From the NCBI GenBank assembly GCA_049303155.1, contig JBAQMW010000339.1, positions 1 to 49,238 of the forward strand: a stretch of DNA of 49,238 nt, read 5' to 3'. Under the pieces are notes generated by a model. That model was given only the letters and a program-made list of their open reading frames with translations, made no database searches and was not told the origin of the DNA. Positions within the stretch are counted from its first letter, which is position 1. Every line of letters starts with the position of its first letter. The position numbers and the translations under genes were made by a program. The DNA comes from Thermodesulfobacteriota bacterium. GTDB lineage: Bacteria > Desulfobacterota > GWC2-55-46 > DRQE01. Of the stretch, positions 13,840 through 41,135 are shown piece by piece.

Positions 13840-13846
13840 AGTTGCG

Positions 13847-13875: not shown

Positions 13876-13914
13876 ATATACATATTATACAAGATATACA
13901 AAGGAGGACGAACA

Positions 13915-22401: not shown

Positions 22402-22431
22402 TTGACATGACCTTTTGAAAAGTGGTATGTT
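22402..22431 (+). promoter_or_regulatory. putative extended -10 promoter of the regulator gene (possibly a leaderless mRNA)
   Basis: TTGACA (22402-22407), 18-nt spacer containing TG, TATGTT (22426-22431). The ATG at 22438 is only 6 nt downstream and has no SD. Confidence 0.4.
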
Positions 22432-22437: not shown

Positions 22438-23082
22438 ATGAACAGTGATAAAGGTCATAATATCCAGCAGGCTGAAGAGTACAGGTCTCTTCTCGTGCTT
22501 GACGAGATATCCAAGAACGGGAACGTAACCCAGAGGGATTTGAGCAAAAATCTCGGCATCGCGTTAGGTCTTGTGAACTCCTACATAAAAAATCTCGTGT
22601 CAAAGGGATATATAACAGTTTTGGCAATTCCGAGCAAAAGGTATAAATACTACCTCACGCCGATTGGTTTCACTGAAAAGACACGACTCACTTATGAGCA
22701 TTTAAAAAACTTTACGAACCTGTACCGGGTCGCGAGAAGGGACTTCGGGCATCTTTTCCGCGACATGGAATCTTCCGGAATAAAAAAAATCGTCTTCTGC
22801 GGGGTGGACGAAATAGCCGAGATAGCCTATCTGTCCCTTAAGGAAACGACGCTTGAACTCGCGGCAATAGCGGACGACGAAAAAGAAGGAACCAAGTTCT
22901 TCGGCCAAAACGTCATTTCGATAAAGGAACTGAAAAGGCGCTGCCCCGAGCTTATAGTCATAACGTCCCACAGGGCGGAAGAGTTGAGAAGCGCGCTTCT
23001 TTCCGTTGGCGTGTCCTTCGATGCGATACTCGACATAAGCGGCAGCGGGTGGATTAAAAAGGCAGTCGAAATAAAAGAATAA
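22438..23082 (+). CDS. winged-helix transcriptional regulator with C-terminal Rossmann-like domain
   Basis: VTQRDLSKNLGIALGLVNSYIKNLVSKGYI is a wHTH. C-terminal KKIVFCGVDEIAEIAY..IADDEK resembles the CoA-binding-like domain found at the N-terminus of EPS sugar transferases. Confidence 0.65.
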   Translation: MNSDKGHNIQQAEEYRSLLVLDEISKNGNVTQRDLSKNLGIALGLVNSYIKNLVSKGYITVLAIPSKRYKYYLTPIGFTEKTRLTYEHLKNFTNLYRVARRDFGHLFRDMESSGIKKIVFCGVDEIAEIAYLSLKETTLELAAIADDEKEGTKFFGQNVISIKELKRRCPELIVITSHRAEELRSALLSVGVSFDAILDISGSGWIKKAVEIKE

Positions 23083-23093
23083 AGGACGGCAAA

Positions 23094-24419
23094 ATGGCTC
23101 AAAAAAACAGGATATCCGAGCTTTTGAAAAAGATAGATTCCTCAAAGGCCAAGGTCGGGGTCATAGGCCTGGGCTACGTCGGGTTGCCTCTCGTGCTTCG
23201 ATTTTGTGAAGAGGGGTTTAACGTTACGGGCTTTGACGTTGATATCGAGAAGGTAAAATCCCTCACAAAGGGAAGGTCTTACATAAAGCACATCCATTCT
23301 TCTTCCATTAAAGAGGCGGTTTCAAAAGGGCTTTTAAAGGCAACAGGCGACATGTCGAAATTAAAAGACATGGACGCGATAATAATCTGCGTGCCCACCC
23401 CCCTCACCTCCATGCGCGAGCCTGACATGAGTTATGTCGTTGGCACGGCGAACGAGATAGCGAAGTTCATAAGGCCGGGACAGCTCGTCTCCCTTGAATC
23501 CACCACATATCCGGGCACTACCGAAGAGTTGCTTCTTCCGAGATTCGAGAAAAACGGGCTTAAAGCCGGGAAAGACTTCTTCCTCGTGTTTTCGCCTGAA
23601 AGAGAAGATCCCGGCAGGAAAGACCACTCTACAAAGACCATACCGAAGGTTGTGGGAGGGGTTACCAAAAACTGCCTAAAGGCAGGTGTCGCGCTTTACT
23701 CGAAGGTCGTTGATACCGTTGTGCCGGTATCTTCGACAAGGGTTTCCGAAATGACGAAGCTCCTCGAAAACATCTACCGTTGCGTGAACATAGCCCTCGT
23801 GAACGAACTAAAGATGCTCGCCGACAAGATGGGCATGGACATCTGGGAGGTAATAGAGGCATCGAAGACAAAGCCATTCGGGTTTCAGGCCTTTTATCCC
23901 GGCCCCGGTCTCGGAGGGCACTGCATCCCGATTGATCCTTTTTATCTTTCGTGGAAGGCGAGGCAATTTGACTTCCAGACAAGATTCATAGAGCTTGCCG
24001 GAGAGATAAACACTTCCATGCCTTATTACGTCGTGGGAAAGGTGATTGACGCTCTTAATTCCAAAGGCGCGGCGATAAAAGGCTCGAAGATTCTGATTTT
24101 GGGCGCGGCGTACAAAAAAGACGTTGACGACATGAGGGAATCTCCGGCCGTGCACGTGATAGAGATTCTTCAGAGTAAGGGCGCGAAGGTTGATTACAAC
24201 GACCCCTATGTGCCGAAATTGCCGAAGCTCCGCGGCCACACGCTGAACATGAAAAGCGTAAGGCTCGACAAAAAGACGATAAAAAAATACGGCTGTCTCG
24301 TGCTAATTACCGACCATTCTTCTTATGATTATAAATGGCTTGTCAAGGAATCAAGAATACTCGTTGATGCAAGGGGTGTCACAAAAGGCATAAACGCCAA
24401 AAACATAGTGAGGGCTTAG
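23094..24419 (+). CDS. nucleotide-sugar 6-dehydrogenase (UDP-ManNAc / UDP-GlcNAc dehydrogenase family)
   Basis: 441 aa. N-terminal KVGVIGLGYVGLPL NAD fold, catalytic Cys context GPGLGGHCIP, C-terminal UDP-binding domain. Confidence 0.85.
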   Translation: MAQKNRISELLKKIDSSKAKVGVIGLGYVGLPLVLRFCEEGFNVTGFDVDIEKVKSLTKGRSYIKHIHSSSIKEAVSKGLLKATGDMSKLKDMDAIIICVPTPLTSMREPDMSYVVGTANEIAKFIRPGQLVSLESTTYPGTTEELLLPRFEKNGLKAGKDFFLVFSPEREDPGRKDHSTKTIPKVVGGVTKNCLKAGVALYSKVVDTVVPVSSTRVSEMTKLLENIYRCVNIALVNELKMLADKMGMDIWEVIEASKTKPFGFQAFYPGPGLGGHCIPIDPFYLSWKARQFDFQTRFIELAGEINTSMPYYVVGKVIDALNSKGAAIKGSKILILGAAYKKDVDDMRESPAVHVIEILQSKGAKVDYNDPYVPKLPKLRGHTLNMKSVRLDKKTIKKYGCLVLITDHSSYDYKWLVKESRILVDARGVTKGINAKNIVRA

Positions 24420-26885
<2,466 letters not shown>

Positions 26886-26899
<14 letters not shown>

Positions 26900-27548
26900 G
26901 TTAGGCGTACTGGCCGTATCTCTGGTAATCATCGTCATGTGCACGCCTCTTGCGAATCTGCTTGCGTCGTTTCTCTCGGTGGACGGAGAGTTGAGTCCGG
27001 CGGACGTTATTGTGGTGCTTAGCGGCGGTTCGTATCCGGACGGGGTCATGAGCCGCTGGACTCTCGAGAGGACGGTCTGCGGGATAAGGCTGTATAAAAG
27101 AGGCATGGCGTCGAGGATTTTATTCGCGGGAGGGCCTCCGGCAAACGCCAGGAAGGTGCTCGGAAGATATTTTTTCGGAAGCGGAGACGGAACGGTTAAG
27201 GGTGTGATGTCGGACGCCTGTGCCATGAAAAAGCTGGCGATGGAGTTCGGAGTTCCGGAAGAGGCGATTATGGAGGACGAGCATTCTTTGCATACGTACG
27301 AAAACCTTGAGAACGCCGCGCTGCTTATGCGGGAAAAGGGCATGAAGACGGCGCTACTTGTAACGTCCCCCCTGCACATGAGGCGGAGCATGATGGTTGC
27401 GAAAAAGATAGGGCTAAGCTTTATGCCCGCCCCCACTCACGCGACCGACGCGCACAGGAAGCACCCGCTCGAGAGGCTCATACTTTTTCATTTCGCGTTG
27501 CGGGAGTATGCGACGCTCGTTCTTTATAAGGCAAAGGGGTGGGTGTAA
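26886..27548 (+). CDS. DUF218 / YdcF-ElyC family protein
   Basis: N-terminal TM, ADVIVVLSGG, ILFAGG, SLHTYENL, LLVTSPLHMRR motifs typical of DUF218. Confidence 0.75.
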
Positions 27549-27579
27549 ACGCCTTAATTTATAGACGGAGGAATCAACC

Positions 27580-28725
27580 ATGTCATACATCAATAAACTG
27601 AAGGCATTATGGGGATTGGAGGATATAAGCGGCGCGGTTCACGGGCTCGTATCCAATCCTAAGAAGTTAATGAATCTGGCCAAGTTCTTTTTCGAGAGGC
27701 CGTTTAATCCGATCGCGCCGCATTACTATCCTCTGACGCTTATGGTGGAGGTTTCCACGGCGTGTAATCTGAGATGCCCTACATGCGAGCGCGAACTCTT
27801 CAAGCATAAGGGTCTTGTGCCGAAACAGCAGGTAAGCATAGAAAACGTCGAAAGGCTGCGCCCTATCTTGCCCTATGTGTACAGCGTATATTTCGTGGGA
27901 GGGCTCGGCGAGCCGTTTTTGAATCCTGCGTTTTGGGATATGCACCGCATTATCAAGGGGTATAAGGTAAAGACGGGGTATTTTTCAAATGCGGCCATGT
28001 GGGATGACGACATAATGGAAAAAACCATACGGGAGGGCGTTAATTCCGTGCTCGTATCGATTGATTCCCATATTCCTGAAAAATACGATGAAATAAAACT
28101 CGGAGCGCATTTCAATCAGGTTATAGCCAATGTGAAGCGGCTCGGCGAGATAAGGAAAAAATTTCCTGCCGCCGATTTCAAGCTTGGACTTAACTATATT
28201 CAGCGTTCCGACACGTACGAGGACATGCCGGAATTTCTTAACTTCGCGCGTGGACTCGGTGCGGATTTCATAATCTTTACGGCGCTGATAGTGCACGAGG
28301 AGAAGTTCGCGGACAAAAGCCCGTACCTTGTTGACGTGGGAAAGAGGGCAAAGGTTTACGCCGAAGTGCGGAGGAAGGCCGCCGAGTACGGTATGACCAT
28401 TCGGTTGCCGGAGCTTGTGATGAGCGATGTTTACGATAAAACCTGCAACAGCGCGTGGCGTTGTCTGTCGGTGTTCGAGAACGGAGAAGTTTGCTTGTGC
28501 CCGTACTTTAGGTCTGAAAGGGAATTTTATTTCCATGCCGATGGAAGGAGCATAAAGAGATACGCCAGGGTGATGAATGACACCTCGGTCGGCAACATAT
28601 ATAAGGAAAACATACTGGACATATGGAACAGCTCCAAGGCGCAGGAAATGAGGCGGAGTATACGGTCGGGCAAGGGGGTTCCCAATCCGTGCGACACTTG
28701 TTATTTCCGTTACAATCTGCATTGA
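27580..28725 (+). CDS. radical SAM protein with SPASM/twitch-like C-terminal Cys cluster (1)
   Basis: VSTACNLRCPTCE (CxxxCxxC), GGLGEPFLNP. C-terminal CNSAWRC..VCLCPY..CDTC. ggagg SD. Confidence 0.85.
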   Translation: MSYINKLKALWGLEDISGAVHGLVSNPKKLMNLAKFFFERPFNPIAPHYYPLTLMVEVSTACNLRCPTCERELFKHKGLVPKQQVSIENVERLRPILPYVYSVYFVGGLGEPFLNPAFWDMHRIIKGYKVKTGYFSNAAMWDDDIMEKTIREGVNSVLVSIDSHIPEKYDEIKLGAHFNQVIANVKRLGEIRKKFPAADFKLGLNYIQRSDTYEDMPEFLNFARGLGADFIIFTALIVHEEKFADKSPYLVDVGKRAKVYAEVRRKAAEYGMTIRLPELVMSDVYDKTCNSAWRCLSVFENGEVCLCPYFRSEREFYFHADGRSIKRYARVMNDTSVGNIYKENILDIWNSSKAQEMRRSIRSGKGVPNPCDTCYFRYNLH

Positions 28726-28726
28726 T

Positions 28727-30154
28727 ATGACGACGCACAGGATAATAAAAAACCTGTTTCTAATGACGTCGGCGCAGATGATCGGCGCGATACTGCACAT
28801 GGCGTCGTTTATTTATCTCGCGAGGACACTCGGGCCGGAAAACTTCGGGAAGCTTAATTTCTCGGAAGCGATACTGGTTTATTTCCTGATACTTTCAAAC
28901 CTTGGGCTCGATATGCTTGGTACGAGGCATCTCGCAAGGGAAAAAGACGGCGCGGCGCGAAAATCGTTAGTAGAGCGTATCGTAACGCTTAAGGTGTTTT
29001 TGGGCTTGTTTGCCTTTATCTTTTTTCTCGCGTTTATATGGCTTGTGAATAAGCCGGAACAGATAAAAATGCTGCTTCTTTTTTACGGCTTTTCGATATT
29101 CCCGTCCGCATTTTTCATGGACTGGGCATTTCAGGGCGTTGAAAAGATGTCATACAATGCCGTTGCCGTCATATTGAGGGAGGCGGTTTTTCTTGGCGCA
29201 GTGGTTGTGATGATTGACGGTCCGCATATGCTGGCCGTGGTTCCGGTAATTTTCATATTCGCCAGGATAGCTCCGGCAATGTATTTCATGTGGGCATTCA
29301 AGAGACACTTTGGCAGGTTTAGCCTGAAGTTCGACTTTGCTTCGTGGATTGGATTGGCGAAGGAATCTTTGATACTCGGGTATTCGATATTAGTGATACC
29401 CATATTTTACAACCTCGATATCATAATGCTTGGTTTTATGAAGACCGATAAGGAGGTAGGTTATTACAACGCGGCGTATAAACCCATACTTTTTTTCGTT
29501 ATACTCGTGAGCACATATTATACGGTCATATTTCCCCGGGCGGTATATTGTTACAGAGAGGCAAAAGACGAACTTGAGAGATTGCTGTCGTATTCCGTGA
29601 AGCTCATGTTTTTTTTCATCCTGCCCGTCAGTATCGGCGGAACCATGCTCGCAAAGCCTCTTATAAACATGTTTTACGGCCAGGCCTATAATGACGGGGT
29701 GACGGCGTTTCAGATACTCCTGTGGTCTCTTTTTGTAATTTCCATTGGCACGATATACGGCCGGGGGCTTGTCGCGTGCGACAGGGAAAAATTGTTTGCC
29801 GTAGGGTTGACCGTTGGAGCTGTATCCAATTTGGCGTTCAATTTGGCTCTCATACCTCCGTACGGACCGACTGGCGCGGCGGCGGCTACCGTGATGTCGG
29901 AGATTATAAATCTCTATATTTACCACTGGGGTTTACGAAAAGTCATTAAAGTCAGTTTCGGGAAAGAGATATTAAAGTCGCTTGTCGCCTCATTTGTCAT
30001 GGCGGTATTCATAGGCGTAGGTCTTGTCGTCGGATGGAACGTCATATCGATAATTATCGGCGCAGGGCTCCTTTATATAGCCGTACTTTACGCTATTAAA
30101 GGCATAACAATGGACGAGATAAGAATGGTACGAGAAGGTATTTTAAGGGGGTAA
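28727..30154 (+). CDS. MOP-family polysaccharide flippase (Wzx-like) 2
   Basis: 475 aa, multi-pass membrane protein. N-terminal IKNLFLMTSAQMIGAILHMASFIYLARTLG parallels flippase 1. Confidence 0.8.
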   Translation: MTTHRIIKNLFLMTSAQMIGAILHMASFIYLARTLGPENFGKLNFSEAILVYFLILSNLGLDMLGTRHLAREKDGAARKSLVERIVTLKVFLGLFAFIFFLAFIWLVNKPEQIKMLLLFYGFSIFPSAFFMDWAFQGVEKMSYNAVAVILREAVFLGAVVVMIDGPHMLAVVPVIFIFARIAPAMYFMWAFKRHFGRFSLKFDFASWIGLAKESLILGYSILVIPIFYNLDIIMLGFMKTDKEVGYYNAAYKPILFFVILVSTYYTVIFPRAVYCYREAKDELERLLSYSVKLMFFFILPVSIGGTMLAKPLINMFYGQAYNDGVTAFQILLWSLFVISIGTIYGRGLVACDREKLFAVGLTVGAVSNLAFNLALIPPYGPTGAAAATVMSEIINLYIYHWGLRKVIKVSFGKEILKSLVASFVMAVFIGVGLVVGWNVISIIIGAGLLYIAVLYAIKGITMDEIRMVREGILRG

Positions 30155-30157
30155 GAT

Positions 30158-31552
30158 ATGTCGAAAAAAGTCGTATTGGTATCTCCGGGTTCGAGTCAGA
30201 GGAGTTGGGCGTCTCCTCATCCGCCGATAAATGTAGGGTATATAGCGGCGTATCTTGAGGCGCACGGGGTAGAGGTTCGCATAGTTGATGAACTTGCCGG
30301 GCAGGACGCGAGGGAGGCTTTTTTAAGGTTAAAGCCGGATATAGTAGGTATAACCGCCACGACGCCGCTTGTGCCCGACGCGTATCGCGTCGCCGGCATA
30401 GCCAAGGAATTGGGGATACTCACGGTAATGGGCGGGAAACACGCTATGATATTGCCGGAAGAGGCGCTCATGCACGTTGATATTGTCGTGCTCGGAGAGG
30501 GCGAGAAAGCCATGCTCGACATAGTGAACGGCGCGAGGGATAGAGTCATAAGGGTGCCGTATTTCAAGAGCCTCGACGAGGTGCCTTCGCCGGCGTGGCA
30601 TCTGATGGATATGGAGTTTTATCTGACGAGCAAGGAGCGGACCCCGTCGAACCATTTGAGGCTTTTTCCGCCTAAAAGCAGGATTGCCGCGCTCATATCC
30701 ACGCGCGGGTGTCCGTATTCCTGTATTTTTTGTTATAACAGCTGGAGTGACGCGCCACTGCGTTCGCACAGCCCCGAAAGGGTTTTGTCGGACGTTAAGC
30801 ACCTTATGGAAAAATACGGGGCGAACGCGTTTTTCTTCATGGACGATGATTTCTTTGTGCCGAGGAAATGGTTCAAAAGAATATGCGAGCTTTTTATATC
30901 CGAAGGGATAAATAAAAAAATTATATGGGGTTGTCAAACAACCGCCGACCATGTCAGCGGCGAGTATCTTGAATTGGCGAAGAGGGCGGGTTGTTATCAG
31001 GTCGGTTTCGGATTCGAGAGCGGTTCTCAGCGGATACTCGAGATGTTGAAAAAACAAAAAACAAGCGTTGAGGATAACGCCAAGGCCGCGAGGCTTTGCC
31101 GGGAGACCGGAGTGAAGTCGTGGGCGACGTTCATGATAGGCAACCCGACTGAAACTATGGAGGACATTCAGGCGACTTTCGATTTCATAAGAAATAATCC
31201 CATAGACGGAGTAGGCATACACGTTACGACGCCGTTTCCGGGCACCGAGCTGTGGAACTGGTGCAAGGAAAGAAATCTCATACCCGAAAAGCTCGACTGG
31301 TCCATATTCGACACCGGACACATTACTATCCCGGCTTGTGACACCATACCGCCTCAGGATATAGAAAGATTGAGGGACGAGATGCAATATTATTTTCATC
31401 CCATAAGCCTCAGGCACGTCTTGAGCAGAAAAAGCGTCATACTGGAGGCTATGAAACATCCTGCCTCGGCAATGAAAAGGCTTAAGTTCCTCAATGTGTT
31501 CAAGGGTGTCTCCCGCGGCGGTGGAAGCGACAGGTACAGACTTAAAATTTAA
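30158..31552 (+). CDS. B12-binding-domain radical SAM protein (class B) 1
   Basis: N-terminal Rossmann-like cobalamin-binding domain (VVLVSPG..IVGITATTP..GGKHA), then STRGCPYSCIFC (CxxxCxxC). Confidence 0.85.
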   Translation: MSKKVVLVSPGSSQRSWASPHPPINVGYIAAYLEAHGVEVRIVDELAGQDAREAFLRLKPDIVGITATTPLVPDAYRVAGIAKELGILTVMGGKHAMILPEEALMHVDIVVLGEGEKAMLDIVNGARDRVIRVPYFKSLDEVPSPAWHLMDMEFYLTSKERTPSNHLRLFPPKSRIAALISTRGCPYSCIFCYNSWSDAPLRSHSPERVLSDVKHLMEKYGANAFFFMDDDFFVPRKWFKRICELFISEGINKKIIWGCQTTADHVSGEYLELAKRAGCYQVGFGFESGSQRILEMLKKQKTSVEDNAKAARLCRETGVKSWATFMIGNPTETMEDIQATFDFIRNNPIDGVGIHVTTPFPGTELWNWCKERNLIPEKLDWSIFDTGHITIPACDTIPPQDIERLRDEMQYYFHPISLRHVLSRKSVILEAMKHPASAMKRLKFLNVFKGVSRGGGSDRYRLKI

Positions 31553-31566
31553 TCAAGAGGTAAAAT

Positions 31567-32676
31567 ATGAATTGGATAACCTTTAAATATCACGCGAAAA
31601 GGCTTTTAAGGATGATCGGATACCGCGGCATAGGGTATACCGCAAGGTATCTTTTTATCGTGGCATTTTATAACGTTGAATTTTTGCAAAAACTCTTCTT
31701 GACGAAACTTTATCCGTGGTTCGTCTTCTATCCTAGATACGTGGAGGTTGAAATAACCACAAGGTGCAATCTCTTATGCACTATGTGCGAGCATACGTAT
31801 TGGGATGAAAAAAGCATGGATATGTCTCTTGAGCAATTCAAGCGCGTCGTAGACGAATTCCCGAAGCTTAAGTACATAGGGCTTACAGGGATAGGGTCGA
31901 GCTTCCTCAATAAGGATTTTTTAAAGATGTGCGAGTATGTAAAATCCAAGGGGTTGTACAGCGAAGTGTATGACACGTTCCTTTATACCGACGAAAAGGT
32001 CGCGAAGGAGCTTATAAGGATAGGAATGGACAGGCTTATCGCATCCGTTGACGGAGCCACCAAAGAGACCTACGAGAAGATAAGGGTCGCTTCCGATTTC
32101 GATGAGGTTATATCGAACGTCAGAAGCCTCGTGAAACTCAAGAAAGAGACCGGCGCGAAATATCCGGAGATAACCTTTCACTATATAGTCATGAAAGACA
32201 ACGTCAATGAGATCGTTCCCTTCATAGATCTGGTTCATTCCATCATGGAAGGGGAGGACGCGGCTGTTTTTTATACGGCGCTCTTGCACCCGTTTAAAGA
32301 GGTCGAGCATATGGCGTCCGGCGTGCCGGATGACATTATCGAAGAGGCCGAAAAGAAGGCGCGCGCACTCGGCGTCAAGATAGCATGGAATAAAAATATT
32401 ACCGAGAAAGAGCCCATTTCCAATTGCACGGAATGGACGACTCCGTTTATTCACGTGGACGGCACGGTTATTCCGTGTTGCGCGGGCAATGAGGCGAACG
32501 CGAGGCAATTTCAGCGCACTACGTCCATGGGGAATATCTTTGAAAAGACATTCAAAGAGATTTGGTACGGCGAGAGGTATAAAAAGCTTCGCGACGACTT
32601 GCACGATGGCAAGGTGCCGCCGGCGTGCGTTAATTGCACCATATATGACATAAAGGAAAAACCTTCCGACAGGTAG
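31567..32676 (+). CDS. radical SAM protein with SPASM/twitch-like C-terminal Cys cluster (2)
   Basis: ITTRCNLLCTMCEH, LTGIGSSFLN. C-terminal NCTEW..IPCCAG..CVNC. Paralog of 27580..28725. Confidence 0.85.
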   Translation: MNWITFKYHAKRLLRMIGYRGIGYTARYLFIVAFYNVEFLQKLFLTKLYPWFVFYPRYVEVEITTRCNLLCTMCEHTYWDEKSMDMSLEQFKRVVDEFPKLKYIGLTGIGSSFLNKDFLKMCEYVKSKGLYSEVYDTFLYTDEKVAKELIRIGMDRLIASVDGATKETYEKIRVASDFDEVISNVRSLVKLKKETGAKYPEITFHYIVMKDNVNEIVPFIDLVHSIMEGEDAAVFYTALLHPFKEVEHMASGVPDDIIEEAEKKARALGVKIAWNKNITEKEPISNCTEWTTPFIHVDGTVIPCCAGNEANARQFQRTTSMGNIFEKTFKEIWYGERYKKLRDDLHDGKVPPACVNCTIYDIKEKPSDR

Positions 32677-32701
32677 AGCGGATGCGTTAAGAGCGGCTTA
32701 T

Positions 32702-34114
32702 ATGAGCATGAAGGATTCCATACTCTTTATAGATCCGCCGGCCAGCGTGGTCGGTACAAATTCTGGTTTGGGCTATCTGGCGGGTTCGCTTAATGAAAAG
32801 GGCGTCCGTGTTCGCGTTTTGGATTTCAATAACAACCAAAACAACCAGAAAGAGCGCCTTTACGCGGAACTCAGAAGCGGCTTTAAACTTGTGGGTTTTT
32901 CCGTAAAGACGAACACCATATTGATGGCTATGCAAATAGCCCGGTGGTGCAAGGATTTTTCCGGTGATATAGTGTTGTTCGTTGGCGGGCCGGGTGTGAC
33001 GGTGGCAGGGCCGCAATTTTTGGATGAGTATGGGATATTTGATTACGCGTTCGTGGGCGAGTCGGAAAGGTCCATATGCGACTTTATCGACTGCGTACGC
33101 GGGGAAAAGAGCCATGAGAGCGTAAAAGGGCTGTGTTATAAGCGCGGCGGAGCAGTTATTGCAAATCAGGCGGAAGTGCCGTTGGAACTTGACGCTATTC
33201 CGTTGCCTGATTATTCGGCGTTTGACACGTTCGAGCTTAAATATGGCTATCCGCTCGTCACAAGCAGGGGTTGCCCATACGATTGTAGCTATTGTAGCGT
33301 AAAGCTTGTGAGCGGAAAGCGCTTCAGGGCGCGTTCACCTGAAGGCGTTTTGAAAGAACTTAAGTTGGCCAAGGAAAAATACGGGGCCCGCGAGTTTCAG
33401 GTGCTTGACGACACGTTCACGCAAAAACTGGAGCGCACCAAGAAAATATGCGAGCTTATGATAAGCGAAAATATCGGCATGAGTTGGGTTTGCCCGAATG
33501 GTATCAGGGCCGACAGGGTAGATAGGGAGCTGTTTAGGCTCATGAAGGATGCCGGTTGTAAGGGGGTTTGGCTTGGCATAGAAAGTCTCGACAGGGATGT
33601 TTTTAACGCGATAAAAAAAGGCGAGGATATCGAGGATATCCTCAACGCCGTCAAGATGGCTCAGGACGCTGGCATAGACGTAAGCGCGTTCTTTATCATA
33701 GGGCTTCCGGGCAGCACGTACGCGAAAGACATGGAGACCTTTAAGAAGGCAAAAAAACTTCGCTTAAAGTTGACGACATGGAGCATCGCCACGCAGTATC
33801 CGCACACAGCATTATGGGATTGGGTTCAGAAAAACGGGAGGGTCTTGAGAGATTACAGGGAAGTATCGTTTTTTGTCGAGCCGAAGTGCGTTTTTGAGAC
33901 GGACGATTATACCGAAAAGGAAAGGCTCAAAGTTTTTTATAAAGCGAATCTTGCCTTTTCGAGATACGATTGTCTGACTGCGCAAAAAAGTTGGACGAAA
34001 AGGATACTGGCCGTTCTAAAGATAATCATTTTATACGATGCGTGCAGACTGCCGATACATCTTGCCGTAGGCGGCTGGATGATGGCAAAAAGGGCATTTG
34101 GGCAAGTGCGATGA
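32702..34114 (+). CDS. B12-binding-domain radical SAM protein (class B) 2
   Basis: N-terminal B12-binding-like domain, TSRGCPYDCSYCS. Paralog of 30158..31552. Confidence 0.85.
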   Translation: MSMKDSILFIDPPASVVGTNSGLGYLAGSLNEKGVRVRVLDFNNNQNNQKERLYAELRSGFKLVGFSVKTNTILMAMQIARWCKDFSGDIVLFVGGPGVTVAGPQFLDEYGIFDYAFVGESERSICDFIDCVRGEKSHESVKGLCYKRGGAVIANQAEVPLELDAIPLPDYSAFDTFELKYGYPLVTSRGCPYDCSYCSVKLVSGKRFRARSPEGVLKELKLAKEKYGAREFQVLDDTFTQKLERTKKICELMISENIGMSWVCPNGIRADRVDRELFRLMKDAGCKGVWLGIESLDRDVFNAIKKGEDIEDILNAVKMAQDAGIDVSAFFIIGLPGSTYAKDMETFKKAKKLRLKLTTWSIATQYPHTALWDWVQKNGRVLRDYREVSFFVEPKCVFETDDYTEKERLKVFYKANLAFSRYDCLTAQKSWTKRILAVLKIIILYDACRLPIHLAVGGWMMAKRAFGQVR

Positions 34115-35370
34115 AGGTCTTTCACATAACCGACCGTCTGCCGGGGTATCACGGCATGTGGGGAGGGGCAGAGCAGGCGGCATACAGGGCCGTGAAACTT
34201 CTCTGCGGCGCGAAGGGCGTTGAAAACAGGGTCGTTGCCATGCCGCCCTTGAAAGAGGTGAACGAGGGATTCGGGTTTCACGCCGTGAAGAGCATGGAAT
34301 ACTATCTCGGCGAGAGGTTAGAGTTCCTCGCGTCAGGTTTCAAAAATCGCGGCCTTCCGTTCGACCCTGTGTCTTTTTTTTCTTCATATCGGCTTTTTAA
34401 AAGGGAGAGGCCGGACGTCGTTCACGTGCACAAGGCGAACCTTTTGTCTTTTTCCGTCATACAGAGCGCGATTCTTTTAAAAATACCGATTATACTTTCG
34501 ATATACGATTACTGGTATTTCTGCCCCGCGGCGGCGCTCGTAACAGTTGAAGGGCGGCTTTGCCGAAAGTTTCACGGCTTAAGATGCATACAATGCAACG
34601 CGTTCAAGGATTTCGGAGTTGTTTCCAAGGTCATGCTCCTTTTGAGGTGGAAGTGGTTTTTCGATTATTATTACAGGCGTATCGCGGCCTTTGTCGTCTT
34701 GTCCAGGTCTTCCGCGGAGATACTTAAAGAATACGGAATAGACGGAAAAAAGATACACGTCATTCATCAGGCATTTCCTCTTACGAATTGGGACGCGGCG
34801 GCGCCTGTAGAGATGGAAGATAACCTGATATTTTTCGCGGGCTGGATGGACGAAAAAAAGGGGCTTCATGTCTTAATAGACGCTATGCCTTTGGTTTTAA
34901 AAGAGGTTCCCGAAGCGAAGCTCCGCGTGTTTGAGCTTAAGGCCGAGAAAGCGTACAGGGAGAAGATACAAAAGAAGATTGACGAATACGGCATAAATAA
35001 AAGCGTTACTGTCCATGGAAGGCTCGATGCGGGCGAATTCAGGGGGTATCTGAAAAAGGCCAACGTGGTGGTAGTTCCGGAGCAGTGGGAGAACATGAGT
35101 CCGGTTATCATCGTCGAGGCGATGGCCACGGCGAAGCCGATCGTCGCGGGAAGAATAGGCGGCATACCTGAATTCATAGAGGACGGAGTGAGCGGCCTTC
35201 TTGCGGAATACGACAACCCGAAAGACTTCGCGGAAAAGATTGTCCGCGTGCTGAAGGATAAGAAAAAGGCCGTTGAAATGGGCGCGAGGGCGAGAGAGGC
35301 CGCGCTCAAGGCCTTTAACGAAGACGCCATATCGAACGAGTTAGTTTCGTTGTATAATAAAACGGCATGA
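34111..35370 (+). CDS. glycosyltransferase family 4 (GT-B)
   Basis: ATG 34111 overlaps the preceding stop (ATGA). MKVFHITD start. C-terminal VVVPEQWENMSPVIIVEAMATAKPIVAGRIGGIPEFIEDGVSG (E-x7-E region). Confidence 0.85.
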   Translation: MKVFHITDRLPGYHGMWGGAEQAAYRAVKLLCGAKGVENRVVAMPPLKEVNEGFGFHAVKSMEYYLGERLEFLASGFKNRGLPFDPVSFFSSYRLFKRERPDVVHVHKANLLSFSVIQSAILLKIPIILSIYDYWYFCPAAALVTVEGRLCRKFHGLRCIQCNAFKDFGVVSKVMLLLRWKWFFDYYYRRIAAFVVLSRSSAEILKEYGIDGKKIHVIHQAFPLTNWDAAAPVEMEDNLIFFAGWMDEKKGLHVLIDAMPLVLKEVPEAKLRVFELKAEKAYREKIQKKIDEYGINKSVTVHGRLDAGEFRGYLKKANVVVVPEQWENMSPVIIVEAMATAKPIVAGRIGGIPEFIEDGVSGLLAEYDNPKDFAEKIVRVLKDKKKAVEMGARAREAALKAFNEDAISNELVSLYNKTA

Positions 35371-36098
35371 GGATGAAAATGGGCAATGCCAAGACGCCGT
35401 GGAGCGGCATAAAAAAACCGAAATGCGTTATTCTCTGCGGCGGCAAGGGAACGCGGCTACTTCCACTGTCGCTCAAAAAGCAGAAGGGAATGATAGAGGT
35501 AAAGGGAAAGCCCGTATTGCGGCACGTGGTGGATTACTGGAGGCAGTTCACGGACGACTTCATATTTGTCGTGAAGTACAAAAAGGCGGAGATACAGAGG
35601 TTCGCTAAAACCCTTCCCATAAAGGCGCGGTTCGTCGAGCCCAAAAAATTGCGGGGCATCGCGAACGGGATATACCAGGCGAAGGGATTCGTCGGCGAGA
35701 AGTTCATAGTCGTGCTCGGAGACTGCGTGTGCAACGGAAGATTCGCCTTTCCCTCCGGCATGAGCCAGGGTGTCGGCGTATGGGAGACCGGCAAAAAAGA
35801 CGACATCAGGCGCAGTTATTCGCTTAATATCGAGAAGGGCAGGATATTAGGGGTCAAGGAAAAGCCCAAGAGGCTTTTGAACAATCTCTGCGGCATGGGG
35901 TTTTATTTCTTCGACAGGAAGGTTTTTGATTACATAGAAAAAACGCCCCCCTCGCCGTTAAGAGGAGAGATAGAGATAACGGACGTCATACAGAACATGA
36001 TAGAGGCCGGTGAGAAGCTGAAGCCGGTGTTTTTTAAAGGGGGGTATCTTAACATAACCTTTGCCGAAGACGTGAAAAGGGCCGAGGAGATACTTTGA
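35367..36098 (+). CDS. sugar-phosphate nucleotidyltransferase
   Basis: VILCGGKGTRLLPLS (G-x-G-T-R-L signature), GT-A-like fold length. ATGA overlap with the upstream stop. Confidence 0.8.
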   Translation: MRMKMGNAKTPWSGIKKPKCVILCGGKGTRLLPLSLKKQKGMIEVKGKPVLRHVVDYWRQFTDDFIFVVKYKKAEIQRFAKTLPIKARFVEPKKLRGIANGIYQAKGFVGEKFIVVLGDCVCNGRFAFPSGMSQGVGVWETGKKDDIRRSYSLNIEKGRILGVKEKPKRLLNNLCGMGFYFFDRKVFDYIEKTPPSPLRGEIEITDVIQNMIEAGEKLKPVFFKGGYLNITFAEDVKRAEEIL

Positions 36099-36123
36099 GA
36101 AACCAAGCCCGCGCGGAGGCGTC

Positions 36124-37095
36124 ATGAAGATACTCGTAACAGGCGGGGCCGGTTTCATAGGAAGCCACGTCGTTGACGCCTATATAAACGAAGGGCACGA
36201 GGTTTTGGTCATGGACGACCTTTCTTCCGGCAAGACGGAGAATATAAATCCGAAGGCGCGTTTTTTCAAGGCCGACATACGTTCCGCGGAAGCACGGGAA
36301 ATCATATCGCGCGAAAGGCCAGACGCGATAAACCACCACGCGGCCCAGATATCCGTTCCGGCCTCTGTCAAAGACCCGCTCCTTGACGCCGACATAAACA
36401 TAAAAGGATTTTTGAACGTGCTTGAGGCGGCGAAAAACTCGGGGGTTAAAAAAGTCATCTTCATATCTTCGGGTGGCGCGGTTTACGGAGAGGCCAAAGA
36501 ATGCCCCTCTACGGAATGCTGCGAGCCGTCCCCTCTTTCTCCTTACGCCGTAACGAAGTTCGCCGGGGAAAAGTATCTCGCCTTTTATTGCAATCAGTAC
36601 GGGCTCGATTACACGGTTCTGCGCTATGGCAACGTCTACGGCCCGAGGCAGATACCGCACGGAGAGGCCGGGGTCGTGGCGATATTCATGGAACGCCTTG
36701 TTTCCGGAAAACCGTGCGTTGTTTACGGCTTTCCTGACGAGCCGGCCGGCATGACGAGGGACTACTGTTACGTGAAAAATGTTGCAACGGCCAATGTGCT
36801 TGCCCTTGGAAAAGGCAGTTGCGAAATTTTTAACATCGGAACAGGCGTTGAAACTCATACCATGGAATTATTCAATACGGTATATTCATCGTTAAGGCGC
36901 GAGGTCGAACTGCCGGCCGCTCTTGAAAAACCTTCAGCCGGTCCGGCAAGGCCCGGGGATTTGAGGCGAAGCTGCCTTGACGCGAAAAAGGCCGAGAAGA
37001 TTCTCGGCTGGAAGGCGGAAACCGGGTTAAAAGACGGCATTGACGCCACGGTTCCGGCCTTGATGCGTTTAAAGGGATTAAAAGGAGAGCTCTGA
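36124..37095 (+). CDS. NAD-dependent nucleotide-sugar epimerase/dehydratase (GalE-like SDR)
   Basis: MKILVTGGAGFIGSHVV, catalytic SPYAVTK (YxxxK), RYGNVYGPRQ. Confidence 0.85.
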   Translation: MKILVTGGAGFIGSHVVDAYINEGHEVLVMDDLSSGKTENINPKARFFKADIRSAEAREIISRERPDAINHHAAQISVPASVKDPLLDADINIKGFLNVLEAAKNSGVKKVIFISSGGAVYGEAKECPSTECCEPSPLSPYAVTKFAGEKYLAFYCNQYGLDYTVLRYGNVYGPRQIPHGEAGVVAIFMERLVSGKPCVVYGFPDEPAGMTRDYCYVKNVATANVLALGKGSCEIFNIGTGVETHTMELFNTVYSSLRREVELPAALEKPSAGPARPGDLRRSCLDAKKAEKILGWKAETGLKDGIDATVPALMRLKGLKGEL

Positions 37096-37096
37096 G

Positions 37097-38233
37097 TTGA
37101 GAATCGGCATAAACGCGTTATATCTTCTTCCGGGCAGGGTCGGCGGCACGGAGATATATATAAGAAATCTCGTAAGGGAACTCGTTAAAAGGGATTTGGA
37201 AAACGAGTACGTCATATTCGTAAACAGAGAAAGCGCGGGCGTATTCAACGGCATCGCGCCGTCGGCGGAAATAGTAGATTGTCCGGTGCGCGCTTCATCG
37301 AGGCCGTTAAGGATACTCTACGAGCAGTTCATTCTTCCGTTTCAGGCAAAACGCCGCAGACTGGACATTCTTTTTTCCGCAGGCATGGCGGCGCCGTTTA
37401 TTTGTCCCGTGCCTTCAATCGTCGTCGTATACGACCTTCAGCACGTAAATCAGCCGGAAAATTTCCCGTTCCTGTACAGGTTTTTTTTGAACGCCATTGT
37501 CTACCTCAGCGCGAAGACTTCCGACGCGGTGGTTGTCATATCGGGACGGGTAAAAGAAGACGTAGTGAAGCATTACGGAATACCCCACGAAAGGGTGCAC
37601 GTTGTATATATAGGGATGGATCCGGATTTTTTTTCGAGGGTGGACTCCGAAAAAATACTCGCAATAAGGAAAAAATATTCCCTTCCCGAGAGGTTCATTT
37701 TTTATCCGGCGTCGTCTTTGCCGCATAAAAACCATAAAAGACTCCTCGACGCTTTAAAGATATTAAAAGATGCAGGCGAAGACGTTAAACTCCTTTTGAC
37801 GGGCGCGAGGGACTACGGGTGCGGCGAGATCGAAAAAAAGATAAAGGAACTCGGCCTTGAAAAGGACGTTATTTTTTTAGGCTGGCTGCCCTGCGAGGAT
37901 ATTCCGGCAATTTACAGCGCCTCCGAGGCCCTCGTGTATCCGTCTTTGCACGAAGGGTTCGGCATGCCGATTGTGGAGGCAATGGCTGCGGGGACCCCGG
38001 TTGTTTGTTCGGGGATAGAGCCGCTCGGCGAGGTGGCTTCCGACGCCGCGCTTTTCGTTGACCCTTACGACCCGAAAAAAATCGCGGACGCGGTTATGAC
38101 CGTGCTTAACCATGGCGCGGCGCGTGAAAATCTGATAAAAAAAGGACTTAAGAGGGCGAAAGAATTTACATGGAAGAAGACCGCTGAAAACACATTGAAG
38201 ATTTTCGAGTCTTTTGCCATGCGCCGTCCGTGA
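37097..38233 (+). CDS. glycosyltransferase family 4 (GT-B)
   Basis: TTG start 1 nt after the upstream stop. LVYPSLHEGFGMPIVEAMAAGTPVVCS (E-x7-E region). Confidence 0.85.
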   Translation: MRIGINALYLLPGRVGGTEIYIRNLVRELVKRDLENEYVIFVNRESAGVFNGIAPSAEIVDCPVRASSRPLRILYEQFILPFQAKRRRLDILFSAGMAAPFICPVPSIVVVYDLQHVNQPENFPFLYRFFLNAIVYLSAKTSDAVVVISGRVKEDVVKHYGIPHERVHVVYIGMDPDFFSRVDSEKILAIRKKYSLPERFIFYPASSLPHKNHKRLLDALKILKDAGEDVKLLLTGARDYGCGEIEKKIKELGLEKDVIFLGWLPCEDIPAIYSASEALVYPSLHEGFGMPIVEAMAAGTPVVCSGIEPLGEVASDAALFVDPYDPKKIADAVMTVLNHGAARENLIKKGLKRAKEFTWKKTAENTLKIFESFAMRRP

Positions 38234-38239
38234 GGCGTC

Positions 38240-39079
38240 ATGACGGCCATAGAGGAGATAAATTGCGTGAAGAAGTTGCCAAAGATAACCGTCATAACTC
38301 CATCGTTCAATCAGGGGAACTTCATTGAAAGAACGATATTGAGCGTCATAGGGCAGGATTATCCGAATCTTGAATATATCGTGGTTGACGGAGGCTCGAC
38401 CGATTCCACGCTTACCGTATTAAGGAAGTACGAGACGCGGCTCAGTTGGATTTCGGAGAAGGACAAGGGGCAGTCGGATGCCATCAATAAGGGCATAAGG
38501 ACGGCCTCAGGAGACATAATAGCGTATTTGAATTCCGACGACGTTTACGAAAAAGGCGCCTTGCAAAAAGTGGCGGATTTTTTCGCGGCTAACCCTTCGG
38601 CCGTGTGGGTATGCGGAAGATGCCGCATCATAGACGTATTCGACAACGAGACGCGCGGTGTGATAACGCGGTATAAAAATTTTTTACTCAAACGGTACAG
38701 TTATAATATGCTTCTCGTAACAAATTTTATTTCGCAGCCGGCGACGTTTTTGAAAAGGGAGGCCGTTCAGGAGTTCGGGCCTTTCGACGTAACGCTCCAC
38801 AGGGTGATGGATTACGCGTACTGGGTGAAGGTCGGAGCGAAATACCGTCCCGGAATAATAAACGACTATCTTGCGGGATTCAGGGTTCACGGCGCCTCGA
38901 AGACCTCAAGGGAGTTTTGGCAGTCGTTCAGGGAAGAATACGAGGTCGGGAAAAAGAATTCTCCCTCGCGTCTCATAAACGTCCTGCATTACATGAGCTA
39001 TATAGGGATATGCTGCGTGTATACGGCGATGGGTTTTGTTTCGAGGATAAAAGGCATATTTGGGAAAGAGGGTGGATAA
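38240..39079 (+). CDS. glycosyltransferase family 2 (GT-A)
   Basis: ITVITPSFNQGNFIERTILSVIGQDYPNLEYIVVDGGSTD and LNSDD (DxD). Confidence 0.88.
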   Translation: MTAIEEINCVKKLPKITVITPSFNQGNFIERTILSVIGQDYPNLEYIVVDGGSTDSTLTVLRKYETRLSWISEKDKGQSDAINKGIRTASGDIIAYLNSDDVYEKGALQKVADFFAANPSAVWVCGRCRIIDVFDNETRGVITRYKNFLLKRYSYNMLLVTNFISQPATFLKREAVQEFGPFDVTLHRVMDYAYWVKVGAKYRPGIINDYLAGFRVHGASKTSREFWQSFREEYEVGKKNSPSRLINVLHYMSYIGICCVYTAMGFVSRIKGIFGKEGG

Positions 39080-39080
39080 C

Positions 39081-40560: not shown

Positions 40561-40729
40561 GTAGCGCCTCCCTTTAGAGCCTGCCCCCGCAATCTTAAGC
40601 GAGGGGTTGCGTCTTTATGCAGGGCTGCCCCCACCCTGCCCTCCCCAGACCCTTCCCTTCGGGTGGGTTCCCCGGGGGAGGAGATAAGGTATGGCTCATT
40701 AAAGCCCTGCCCTACATGCATTGTGCCGG
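40561..40729 (+). repeat. interspersed repeat family B, copy B2 (preceded by a family A-like head at 40518-40560)
   Basis: gtagcgcctccctttagagcctgcccccgca ... taagcgaggggttgc ... gccctgccctacatgcattgtgccgg. An 11-bp hairpin ggggcagggct/agccctgcccc encloses the manC stop codon. Confidence 0.8.
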
Positions 40730-40784
40730 TAGAAACAGGCCGCGAACAAAATCCGCACATCGGCAATTTTTGAAAAGGCTGAAT

Positions 40785-41135
40785 ATGACAGGCATAGACA
40801 TAGTGTCAATCGAGAGGGTTAGGAAGGCCTGCCTTCGGCCAGCTATCCTCGAAAGATTATTCACCAAGAACGAACTGGCCTACGCCTTTTCCGGAAGAGA
40901 CCCTTTTAAACGTCTTGCCGGGCGTTTTGCCGCGAAGGAGGCGTTTTTAAAGGCGCTTGGAACGGGGCTTTCTTCAGGCATAAGATGGAAGGACGTGGAG
41001 GTCGTAAAAGACCCGTCCGGAAGGCCTGTTGTGAAAGCCGTCTTCGTTGCCGAAAAAATCCTCGGTAAAAGAATTCCTCACGCGAGCATAGCCTATGTCA
41101 AACAGTACGCAATCGCCACGGTAAAGATAGAATAG
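40785..41135 (+). CDS. acpS: holo-[acyl-carrier-protein] synthase
   Basis: MTGIDIVSIERV..., FAAKEAFLKALGTG. The listed start 40617 would translate repeat family B, so ATG 40785 is preferred. Confidence 0.85.
   Translation: MTGIDIVSIERVRKACLRPAILERLFTKNELAYAFSGRDPFKRLAGRFAAKEAFLKALGTGLSSGIRWKDVEVVKDPSGRPVVKAVFVAEKILGKRIPHASIAYVKQYAIATVKIE

Follow-up and report, generated by a model that had tools for sequence, protein, structure and literature searches.

Radical SAM Enzymes of Twitch and B12-Binding Types in a Glycan Operon of a Thermodesulfobacteriota Bacterium, with a Probable Role in Surface-Glycan Tailoring

Introduction

To our knowledge, radical S-adenosylmethionine (SAM) chemistry on sugars is known almost solely from antibiotic pathways, with BtrN, DesII, AprD4 and GenK as examples, and we know of no radical SAM enzyme (rSAM) characterised so far in cell-surface glycan or protein-glycosylation pathways. 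Here we describe a block of five genes, four of them encoding rSAMs, at positions 27580-34114 of contig JBAQMW010000339.1 (assembly GCA_049303155.1) from a Thermodesulfobacteriota bacterium, of which a whole stretch of 49,238 nucleotides was analysed (the window). Two of the enzymes are assigned to the twitch type (SPASM1 and SPASM2) and two carry a B12-binding domain (B12-1 and B12-2). In our view the four are probably cytoplasmic tailoring enzymes of a Wzx-dependent surface-glycan pathway and not peptide maturases. The link between these rSAMs and glycans is strong because they share an operon with nucleoside diphosphate (NDP)-sugar enzymes, three glycosyltransferases (GTs) and two flippases, and because their families keep the same company in Bacteria and Archaea. 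The novelty lies in the setting, namely primary glycans of the cell surface and of proteins, in the families, in the pairing of twitch and B12 enzymes and in the breadth over both prokaryotic domains, rSAM tailoring of carbohydrates being itself known from aminoglycoside and macrolide sugar pathways.

Among the closest described systems is BtrN, the butirosin 2-deoxy-scyllo-inosamine dehydrogenase and founding twitch rSAM, which has a carbohydrate-like substrate and resembles the twitch proteins of the window in its rSAM core followed by a one-auxiliary-cluster domain (C-X17-C...C-X2-C). The differences are that SPASM2 is around 15% identical to BtrN (TM 0.46/0.66) and has a fifth invariant Cys, that the window proteins are around 120 aa longer, with a conserved N-terminal helical extension, and that they and their relatives are found in surface-glycan and N-glycosylation loci, whereas BtrN belongs to an aminoglycoside cluster. 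Besides SkfB and SuiB, the nearest folds to SPASM2 are those of DesII (TDP-4-amino-4,6-dideoxyglucose deaminase/dehydrogenase), viperin and BlsE (TMq 0.56-0.62), and an NDP-sugar substrate would suit the conserved nucleotidylyltransferase and epimerase partners of SPASM2. However, identities are 13-16%, DesII and viperin have no auxiliary cluster, and the short-chain dehydrogenase/reductase (SDR) of the window to be compared with the DesII pathway is GalE-like, with no sign of an aminosugar or 4-keto-6-deoxy intermediate.

The B12-binding enzymes share a B12-binding Rossmann domain and rSAM core with the class-B methylases TsrM, TokK, CysS and MgmA (TMq 0.62-0.71). GenK and GenD1 are cobalamin-dependent rSAM sugar C-methyltransferases that B12-1 and B12-2 would resemble; they too are tailoring enzymes beside a GT, acting on antibiotics, whereas primary cell-envelope glycans are proposed here. 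AprD4, the apramycin C3' diol dehydratase, acts on a sugar ring and is the PDB protein that B12-1 and B12-2 both match best by sequence, but it works without cobalamin and requires the reductase AprD3. In the hopanoid side-chain pathway, HpnI and HpnJ are a GT and a B12-rSAM that rearranges the transferred membrane-anchored sugar, although B12-2 reaches only 149 bits with the HpnJ model against a cut-off of 577.6, and the window has no hopanoid genes. The proteusin pathway, in which the rSAM epimerase PoyD and the B12-rSAM C-methyltransferases PoyB and PoyC, variable in number, decorate a leader-bearing ribosomal peptide, is similar in logic only, as a non-B12 rSAM and multiple B12-rSAMs act on a polymer; here the enzymes are accompanied by GTs, and no peptide gene exists.

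Organisation of the Operon

The 16 genes at 22438-40517 lie on the + strand and make up one operon with a widest intergenic gap of 31 nt. The block itself consists of five + strand open reading frames (ORFs), the four rSAM genes and a Wzx-type flippase, in which every Pfam domain scores above the gathering threshold (PF04055 and PF13186; PF01943; PF02310 and PF04055). The genes are as follows:

22438-23082, + strand: winged-helix (MarR/TrmB-like) regulator, operon gene 1 (Pfam HTH_24/MarR), 11 nt before gene 2
23094-24419, + strand: NDP-sugar 6-dehydrogenase, UDP-ManNAc/UDP-Glc dehydrogenase-like (TIGR03026, 436 bits, above cut-off; Pfam UDPG_MGDP_dh N, central and C domains)
24423-25442, + strand: GDP-L-fucose synthase-like SDR, Epi1 (NF047922, 304 bits, below the cut-off of 500; PF01370)
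25400-26899, + strand: Wzx/MOP-type flippase Flip1 (PF01943), 28% identical to Flip2; the real start is probably 3' of the listed GTG
26886-27548, + strand: DUF218 (ElyC-like) protein (PF02698); a DUF218 gene is also found within the rSAM-rich glycan locus L010
27580-28725, + strand: SPASM1, twitch-type rSAM of 381 aa (PF04055 and PF13186); CX3CX2C as C62/C66/C69; C289, C307, C371 and C374 family-invariant
28727-30154, + strand: Wzx/MOP-type flippase Flip2 of 475 aa, inside the rSAM block (PF01943/PF13440/MurJ)
30158-31552, + strand: B12-1, B12-binding rSAM of 464 aa (PF02310 and PF04055), conserved partner of SPASM2
31567-32676, + strand: SPASM2, twitch-type rSAM of 369 aa (PF04055 and PF13186), the most widely conserved element; C67/C71/C74 invariant
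32702-34114, + strand: B12-2, B12-binding rSAM of 470 aa (PF02310 and PF04055), conserved partner of a GT4a-type transferase
34111-35370, + strand: GT4 glycosyltransferase GT4a (PF00534/PF13439), with the start set at the ATG overlapping the B12-2 stop
35367-36098, + strand: sugar-1-phosphate nucleotidylyltransferase of around 240 aa, RmlA/AglF/archaeal GlmU-N-like (PF00483); best PDB matches are glucose-1-P thymidylyltransferases
36124-37095, + strand: GalE-like NDP-hexose 4-epimerase, Epi2; best PDB match UDP-glucose 4-epimerase 4zrm (E 5.9e-84); motif SSGGAVYG without the dehydratase D/E pair
37097-38233, + strand: GT4 glycosyltransferase GT4b (PF00534/PF13439)
38240-39079, + strand: GT2 glycosyltransferase (PF00535)
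39060-40517, + strand: ManC, mannose-1-phosphate guanylyltransferase/mannose-6-phosphate isomerase, final operon gene (TIGR01479, 514 bits, above cut-off)

Thus, the components of a Wzx/Wzy-type glycan locus are represented by two PF01943 flippases, two GT4 and one GT2 transferases, the nucleotidylyltransferase, ManC, the NDP-sugar dehydrogenase and two SDRs. The block had first been described by a model that read only the sequence (the original prediction), and its gene order (SPASM-like rSAM, flippase, B12-rSAM, SPASM-like rSAM, B12-rSAM) was confirmed for all five ORFs, as were the motifs CNLRCPTCE, CNLLCTMCEH, RGCPYSCIFC and RGCPYDCSYC in their translations and the tight packing, with gaps within the block of 1, 3, 14 and 25 nt followed by a 4-nt ATGA-type overlap into the following gene. 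With rSAMs assumed to account for a few percent of genes, four among five adjacent genes would be far beyond chance. Operon ends around 22430 and 40600 are weakly supported by a promoter-like site at 22402-22431 and a weak terminator-like hairpin at 40588-40611, scan counts being overall near chance.

The block had also been described as more AT-rich than its flanks. Its genes have a GC content of 0.458-0.508 (mean around 0.48), versus around 0.51 in the flanking glycan genes and 0.505 in the window, in such a way that the difference exists but is marginal, around 3 GC points, and is shared by non-block genes (the HTH regulator, 0.462; GT2, 0.480). Horizontal transfer was considered on the basis of composition and discarded, as a difference of this kind carries no information.

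No precursor-peptide gene can fit in the operon because its widest gap is 31 nt. In addition, every ORF of 15 aa or more that falls largely outside genes was inspected between 21900 and 40750, and only spurious ones were found, in the 355-nt region upstream of gene 1, in agreement with the original prediction, which had reported no small precursor ORF. A search for RRE or PqqD domains in the rSAMs gave no Pfam match at E<=0.01, and only Radical_SAM and SPASM domains were detected in the twitch proteins.

The presence of two Wzx-type flippases, 28% identical to each other, without Wzy, Wzz and initiating enzyme suggests two lipid-linked products, or a short oligosaccharide initiated elsewhere.

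Glycan Context in Bacteria and Archaea

Relatives of SPASM2 were sought in one genome per GTDB species, and the best 80 of the 186 loci found were compared by tblastn with the window proteins; co-occurrence was counted in the 36 of these 80 species-level loci that have at least 18 kb of sequence. The best 80 belong to Patescibacteria, Omnitrophota, Planctomycetota (among them the anammox genera Kuenenia, Brocadia and Scalindua), Nitrospirota, Elusimicrobiota and Margulisiibacteriota and, among the archaea, to Bathyarchaeia, Heimdallarchaeota, Nano-/Woesearchaeota and the cultured methanogen Methanospirillum stamsii, the closest being 55% identical. Homologs of the glycan genes of the window were found in 34 of the 36 loci, a nucleotidylyltransferase homolog in 25, GT4 together with a nucleotidylyltransferase in 23, and an SDR epimerase in addition to both in 18, whereas twelve non-glycan window genes used as a control match merely 0-3 of the 80 loci. 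B12-rSAMs are present in 22 of the 36 (no copy in 14 loci, one in 6, two in 7, three in 6, four in 2 and five in 1), and lie at 200 bp or less from the twitch gene in 11. When Pfam-annotated neighbourhoods were inspected, both twitch and both B12 families turned out to have GTs, flippases and NDP-sugar enzymes as neighbours, and this in dozens of phyla. Around 90 related loci of dozens of phyla showed no conserved small gene accompanying the families, whereas glycan genes were nearly always there. Representative loci are:

L001, bacterium: three B12-rSAMs, flippase, GT2/GT9/GT4
L002, bacterium: five consecutive B12-rSAMs
L003, Syntrophoarchaeum: GT4, GT4, methyltransferase (MT), twitch rSAM, GT4, SDR, nucleotidylyltransferase
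L004, Parcubacteria: glycan locus with two B12-rSAMs and a twitch rSAM
L006, Nanoarchaeia metagenome-assembled genome (MAG): locus with STT3 at the end
L010, SPASM1-type locus: four SPASM/twitch rSAMs, three B12-rSAMs, GT4, GT9, GT2, WecA-type transferase, flippase, DUF218
L037, Ca. Kuenenia hertensis: flippase, GT2-MT, two B12-rSAMs, twitch rSAM, rSAM, GT4, nucleotidylyltransferase, GT4, GDP-mannose 4,6-dehydratase
L042, M. stamsii Pt1: AglB/STT3, GT2, second SPASM rSAM, flippase, WbsX-like protein, twitch ortholog, GT4, SDR, nucleotidylyltransferase, four further GT4

By its gene content, L042 is an archaeal N-glycosylation locus, anchored by AglB/STT3, in a culturable organism, with the twitch ortholog at around 1,357,772-1,358,848 of NZ_CP176366.1. 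The SPASM1 family is always found in rSAM-rich glycan loci alongside SPASM2-type genes (L009, L010 and L011 examined), and a flippase adjoins the rSAMs in L001, L009, L010, L011 and L042.

These data support that the four rSAMs are linked to glycan synthesis, unlike peptide maturases. Both parts of this conclusion had been anticipated in the original prediction, which had proposed a search for the arrangement in other glycan loci, and they are now sustained by the lack of room for a precursor, the lack of PqqD/RRE, the glycan contexts in dozens of phyla and the fusions to GTs described below. A conserved precursor gene in or beside the block would have contradicted it, and none was found in the operon or in the related loci examined. 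As to a second possible contradiction, the clustering of the enzymes with characterised non-carbohydrate families, no family cut-off is reached and the arrangement is glycan-linked elsewhere; the nearest named B12-rSAM models include lipid, tetrapyrrole and protein enzymes.

Most SPASM2 loci have, beside the nucleotidylyltransferase, an SDR of around 343 aa with the motif C[AS]T[VI]H[VI]YG (e.g., L004 4459-5490, L007 6969-8006, L042 12490-13521), whose best PDB matches are CDP-tyvelose 2-epimerases (TaTyvE 9rl0, E 1.6e-51; 1orr). TaTyvE interconverts CDP-glucose and CDP-mannose, its gene context being undiscussed in that work (PMC13098431). The tailored sugar may differ between lineages, because the window has a GalE-like epimerase and not an SDR of the tyvelose-epimerase type. 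Regarding products, up to five methyl groups are distributed over six sugars in the S-layer O-glycan of Kuenenia, which also contains an unidentified 174-Da 'dimethyl-deoxyhexose'; the methyl positions given for it follow from mass alone (PMC5088730). The same module is found at L037 with its two B12-rSAMs and GDP-mannose 4,6-dehydratase, which makes a circumstantial link to this product.

Proteins similar to GH130/GH43 recur in SPASM1-type loci (L009 8730-9776, L010 8912-9934, L011 14937-15890), with none in the window, and may be phosphorylase-type or GT-like mannosyl enzymes. In L039, from a Brocadiaceae MAG, the SPASM2 ortholog is followed within 9935-13938 by an SBBP beta-propeller-repeat protein and an NTP_transf_5 protein, which may reflect a different use or a relocated gene.

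Conserved Gene Pairs and Fusions

With orthologs defined by at least 40% identity, B12-1 orthologs were detected in 18 SPASM2-family loci, in 9 of which they are directly beside the SPASM2 ortholog; when any ORF best-matching B12-1 was counted, the numbers rose to 42 loci, 28 of them with adjacency. B12-1 orthologs at 45-67% identity adjoin SPASM2 orthologs in many phyla. For B12-2, orthologs were found in 5 loci and a GT4a-type gene was directly adjacent in all 5, such a gene being present in 31 of 82 related loci. The pairing of radical enzymes put forward in the original prediction is supported for one pair, B12-1 with SPASM2.

Gene fusions were also found. P0269 joins GT2, B12 and rSAM domains, is 40% identical to B12-2, was recovered from two samples and has GT4 genes on either side. 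Among the best B12-1 relatives, P0428 is a fusion of B12-rSAM and GT4, P0312 of a TylF-type sugar O-methyltransferase and B12-rSAM, and P0386, P0414 and P0389 of B12-rSAM and class-I MT, with tandem double B12-rSAMs also present among these relatives. The fusions of GT and rSAM favour a tailoring coupled to transfer. The first gene of the fusion contig L092 was considered as a twitch rSAM and rejected, as its motif suggests another GT.

Twitch-Type Enzymes

The paralogy of SPASM1 with SPASM2 and of B12-1 with B12-2 is real, as predicted, but in both cases it proved to be distant. The identity of the twitch pair is 24% (E 7e-30), and their profile-profile alignment (E 1.2e-46 over 300 columns) spans the core and the C-terminal domain, with the N-terminal extensions excluded. 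The CX3CX2C motif is invariant in the family alignments, and PF04055 is above its gathering score in all four rSAMs. In the C-terminal region the SPASM2 family conserves five Cys (C287-X16-C304C305-X48-C354-X2-C357) and the SPASM1 family four (C289-X17-C307-X63-C371-X2-C374).

Both proteins are assigned to the twitch subfamily and not to the SPASM subfamily, whose members have two auxiliary clusters, because merely 4-5 C-terminal Cys are conserved. The 7-Cys SPASM motif CX9-15GX4C...CX2CX5CX3C...C is not kept, its CX2CX5CX3C block being absent despite the match to PF13186, and what is found is a truncated SPASM domain with around four Cys (C-X~17-C ... C-X2-C) and a partial match to the twitch-domain model NF033640. 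From these alignments, SPASM1 and SPASM2 are BtrN-like twitch enzymes with one predicted auxiliary cluster, in such a way that the earlier description of them as SPASM-like with a reduced C-terminal Cys cluster was right in the reduction and wrong in the type.

SPASM2 residues 296-362 match the BtrN twitch domain by sequence (E 4e-5), and there is also a match to DesII (E 8e-4). The AlphaFold2 (AF2) model of SPASM2 has a pLDDT of 91.7, and its N-terminal extension is a 47-residue three-helix segment (residues 3-47) without beta-sheet. The Foldseek neighbours of the model at TMq 0.46-0.62 and 12-18% identity are SkfB, DesII, SuiB, viperin, BlsE, BtrN, MoaA, PqqE and EpeE, which on the basis of the model sets SPASM2 apart as a family of its own within the twitch/viperin/DesII part of fold space, where many neighbours act on sugars or nucleotides. 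BtrN and DesII, which had been offered as precedents, are thus among the structural neighbours, but SkfB, SuiB, viperin, BlsE and MoaA have similar TM-scores, so the chemistry is not fixed by them.

The SPASM2 family is large and tightly conserved and goes by generic names only; it has 559 matches at E<=1e-10, the best 120 being 47-78% identical. The SPASM1 family is small (46 matches, around 40 clusters), its named members being mostly 'Deltaproteobacteria' MAGs. In a separate protein, P0163 (632 aa), SDR/KR domains (PF08659, PF00106) are joined to an rSAM core that is a remote relative of SPASM1 (79 bits), a fusion of oxidoreductase and rSAM that recalls the logic of AprD4/AprD3.

B12-Binding-Domain Enzymes

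B12-1 and B12-2 are 28% identical (E 6e-37), and in both an N-terminal B12-binding Rossmann domain precedes the rSAM core (PF02310 and PF04055), as in class-B rSAMs at the domain level. Their binding and use of cobalamin is predicted from this domain only. The alignments with AprD4 (E 7e-21 and 3e-21) cover mostly the rSAM core (residues 168-404 and 187-380), and the corresponding model NF033070 gives 86-89 bits against a cut-off of 500. The AF2 model of B12-2 has a pLDDT of 94.4, and its Foldseek neighbours at TMq 0.62-0.71 include AprD4 and OxsB in addition to the methylases TsrM, MgmA, CysS and TokK. The modelled fold supports the enzyme class and leaves the reaction unfixed, as methylases, the dehydratase AprD4 and the ring-contracting OxsB are all near.

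The B12-1 family comprises 6,738 representatives (50% identity) at E<=1e-30. Two of its relatives of around 750 aa, P0295 and P0332, and probably also P0299, have an added LAGLIDADG_3 homing-endonuclease domain, located between the B12 domain and the rSAM core in P0332 and after the core in P0295, which suggests inteins in the family. Seven others (P0338, P0353, P0362, P0367, P0358, P0372 and P0394), of 1,500-2,600 aa, have 3-7 separate stretches matching B12-1 and may be concatenated multi-rSAMs or mis-called genes.

In L004, a DUF4430 gene (8974-9402) and a gene for a DUF6580 membrane protein (9409-9987) lie between the B12-rSAM and the twitch rSAM of a Ca. Parcubacteria genome, the same one as that of L005 and L017. 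Transcobalamin-type B12 binders have DUF4430 (PF14478) as their C-terminal domain (PMC4350170), and the two genes may form a pair for B12 capture and uptake in a bacterium of the Candidate Phyla Radiation (CPR). As evidence for B12 dependence the pair was discarded as an anecdote, since it occurs in one genome only among the related loci examined.

Curated Families and Literature

None of the four rSAMs reaches any curated NCBIfam cut-off; in particular, the W-cofactor maturase family TIGR04317, TIGR04311, HpnJ, BchE, PhpK, ApyD, AprD4, MgmA, HpnR and the ladderane-type family, with cut-offs of 360-750 bits, are all missed, HpnJ being the top model for B12-2. In the source databases the relatives of the four proteins bear generic names only. 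The families TIGR04157/TIGR04148 'glyco_rSAM_CFB', which describe a Bacteroidota GT beside an rSAM peptide maturase, do not apply either, as GT4a reaches 65 bits where 400 are required, and no GG-motif peptide gene was found. No publication on rSAMs in Wzx- or AglB-type glycan loci was found in a search that left subscription journals mostly outside, so that the absence is not proof, and carbohydrates are unmentioned in the RadicalSAM.org paper.

Proposed Pathway and Alternative Explanations

In the pathway that we propose, GT4a, GT4b and GT2 would transfer NDP-hexoses made in the pathway onto a polyprenyl-phosphate carrier at the inner membrane face, and Wzx-type flippases would export the tailored lipid-linked glycan. 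As rSAMs depend on SAM and on a reductant of the cytoplasm, tailoring would precede flipping. The substrate could be either the NDP-sugar or the carrier-linked sugar, and the GT-rSAM fusions would favour a coupling of tailoring to glycosyl transfer. In the twitch enzymes, a 5'-deoxyadenosyl radical would abstract a hydrogen from a sugar C-H, after which the single auxiliary [4Fe-4S] cluster could accept the electron in a BtrN-type oxidation to a keto-sugar, or the radical could be re-quenched from the opposite face, resulting in epimerisation, with Cys305, the extra invariant Cys of the SPASM2 family, as candidate hydrogen donor. B12-1, as partner of SPASM2, and B12-2, as partner of GT4a, would most likely methylate a sugar carbon radical with methylcobalamin as donor, as in the C-methylation by GenK/GenD1. 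By analogy, the combination of oxidation/epimerisation and C-methylation, already put forward in the original prediction, is inferred here as the most economical guess at the chemistry.

The role in glycan tailoring is supported by the resemblance of the SPASM2 fold to DesII, viperin, BlsE, BtrN and MoaA, which act on sugars or nucleotides, and by the fact that AprD4 is an aminoglycoside-sugar enzyme. Several observations weigh against it. The Wzy polymerase, the chain-length regulator (Wzz) and the initiating phosphoglycosyltransferase were not recognised in the 16-gene operon or in the rest of the window; they may be encoded outside it, or the product may be a short oligosaccharide. The best NCBIfam scores of the four rSAMs are 125-149 bits against cut-offs of 380-578, and the nearest named B12-rSAM models include enzymes of lipids, tetrapyrroles and proteins (HpnJ/HpnR, ladderane-type, BchE, MgmA). 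The top Foldseek match of SPASM2 is the peptide maturase SkfB, with SuiB, PqqE and EpeE in the same TM range, and 2 of the 36 loci (L039 and L057) have no detectable glycan genes. Finally, cobalamin binding has no diagnostic motif in the sequence, and AprD4, which has the same B12-type domain, works without this cofactor.

The same glycan role could be served by another chemistry, in which the B12 enzymes would be AprD4-like diol dehydratases or catalyse an HpnJ/OxsB-like ring contraction, and the twitch enzymes would be DesII/viperin-like dehydratases, the product being a deoxy-, branched or carbocyclic sugar. The ranking of AprD4 as best PDB sequence match for both B12 proteins and its high position, with OxsB, in Foldseek speak for this chemistry, as do HpnJ as top NCBIfam model for B12-2 and the ranking of DesII, viperin and BlsE above BtrN for SPASM2. 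On the other hand, TsrM, MgmA, CysS and TokK are equally close in fold to B12-2, most characterised class-B rSAMs are methylases, the repeated occurrence of fusions with methyltransferases of class I and TylF type points to methylation as a theme, and no equivalent of the AprD3 reductase on which AprD4 depends is evident in the operon. We regard such a chemistry as the less likely one, though still quite possible, because neither sequence (NCBIfam ranking) nor fold (Foldseek) separates methylase, dehydratase and ring contraction.

It is improbable, in our estimation, that the targets of the rSAMs are not sugars but the polyprenyl carrier or the lipid portion of a glycolipid, modified through methylation, cyclisation or cross-linking as in the hopanoid, tetraether and ladderane pathways. 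The near-matches in NCBIfam to HpnJ, HpnR and the ladderane-associated 'lipid biosynthesis B12-binding/radical SAM' model, the presence of the family in anammox bacteria and a low position of GDGT-MAS in the Foldseek list of SPASM2 would fit such a role, but the lipid models score far under their cut-offs, no lipid-synthesis genes appear in the operon of the window or in the related loci examined, and CPR and DPANN organisms, whose lipid metabolism is minimal, are rich in these families. Moreover, the genes conserved alongside them encode GTs, a nucleotidylyltransferase and an NDP-sugar epimerase, and the fusions are to GT and sugar O-methyltransferase domains.

Least credible of all is a role as peptide or protein maturases, either of ribosomally synthesised and post-translationally modified peptides or acting on a glycoprotein or partner enzyme, with the substrate encoded elsewhere, since the richness of the SPASM/twitch and B12-rSAM superfamilies in such maturases, the structural closeness of SkfB, SuiB, PqqE and EpeE to SPASM2 and the near-matches to ApyD, rSAM_ocin and MgmA in NCBIfam and the PDB are opposed by an operon in which no precursor can fit, the lack of RRE/PqqD, the three-helix N-terminus of SPASM2, the fusions to GTs and the around 90 loci with glycan genes and no conserved small gene.

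Returning to the tailoring of sugars, the two twitch and two B12 families are regular components of surface-glycan loci in dozens of phyla, tiny-genome organisms included. We hold as evenly balanced the broader proposal that they constitute a previously unrecognised tailoring system common to Bacteria and Archaea, in which a twitch rSAM, often with 1-5 cobalamin-type rSAMs, would be built into Wzx-/AglB-dependent glycan assembly (CPR, anammox bacteria, Nitrospirota, DPANN, Bathyarchaeia, Heimdallarchaeota, methanogens) and would modify unactivated sugar carbons of N-/O-glycans and surface polysaccharides, giving C-methyl branches, epimerised or keto centres and possibly carbocycles. Such a system, if real, would account for 'heavily methylated' glycans, the S-layer O-glycan of Kuenenia among them, and its enzymes would represent new families. 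If the enzymes are sugar-directed, many environmental and archaeal glycans would hold C-modified sugars mislabelled as O-methyl by mass-only analyses, glycan synthesis in these organisms would depend on cobalamin and anaerobic Fe-S chemistry, and a large block of 'unknown' rSAM sequence space would gain a testable function. The cultured Methanospirillum stamsii Pt1 and anammox enrichments offer experimental entry points.

Neighbouring Genes

Genes flanking the operon in the window include FtsH, MetH, a class-II-like ribonucleotide reductase and Rpe, which mark the source as bacterial. A 4'-phosphopantetheinyl transferase of 172 aa (PF01648) is encoded at 40617-41135 (+ strand), 100 nt past ManC, the gap containing the hairpin at 40588-40611. 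On the other side of the operon, a 960-aa protein at 15735-18617 (- strand) has an HSP70/MreB-like ATPase domain confined to residues 583-815, with its remainder unassigned, and near it, at 14752-15486 (+ strand), lies a 244-aa ORF without Pfam match.

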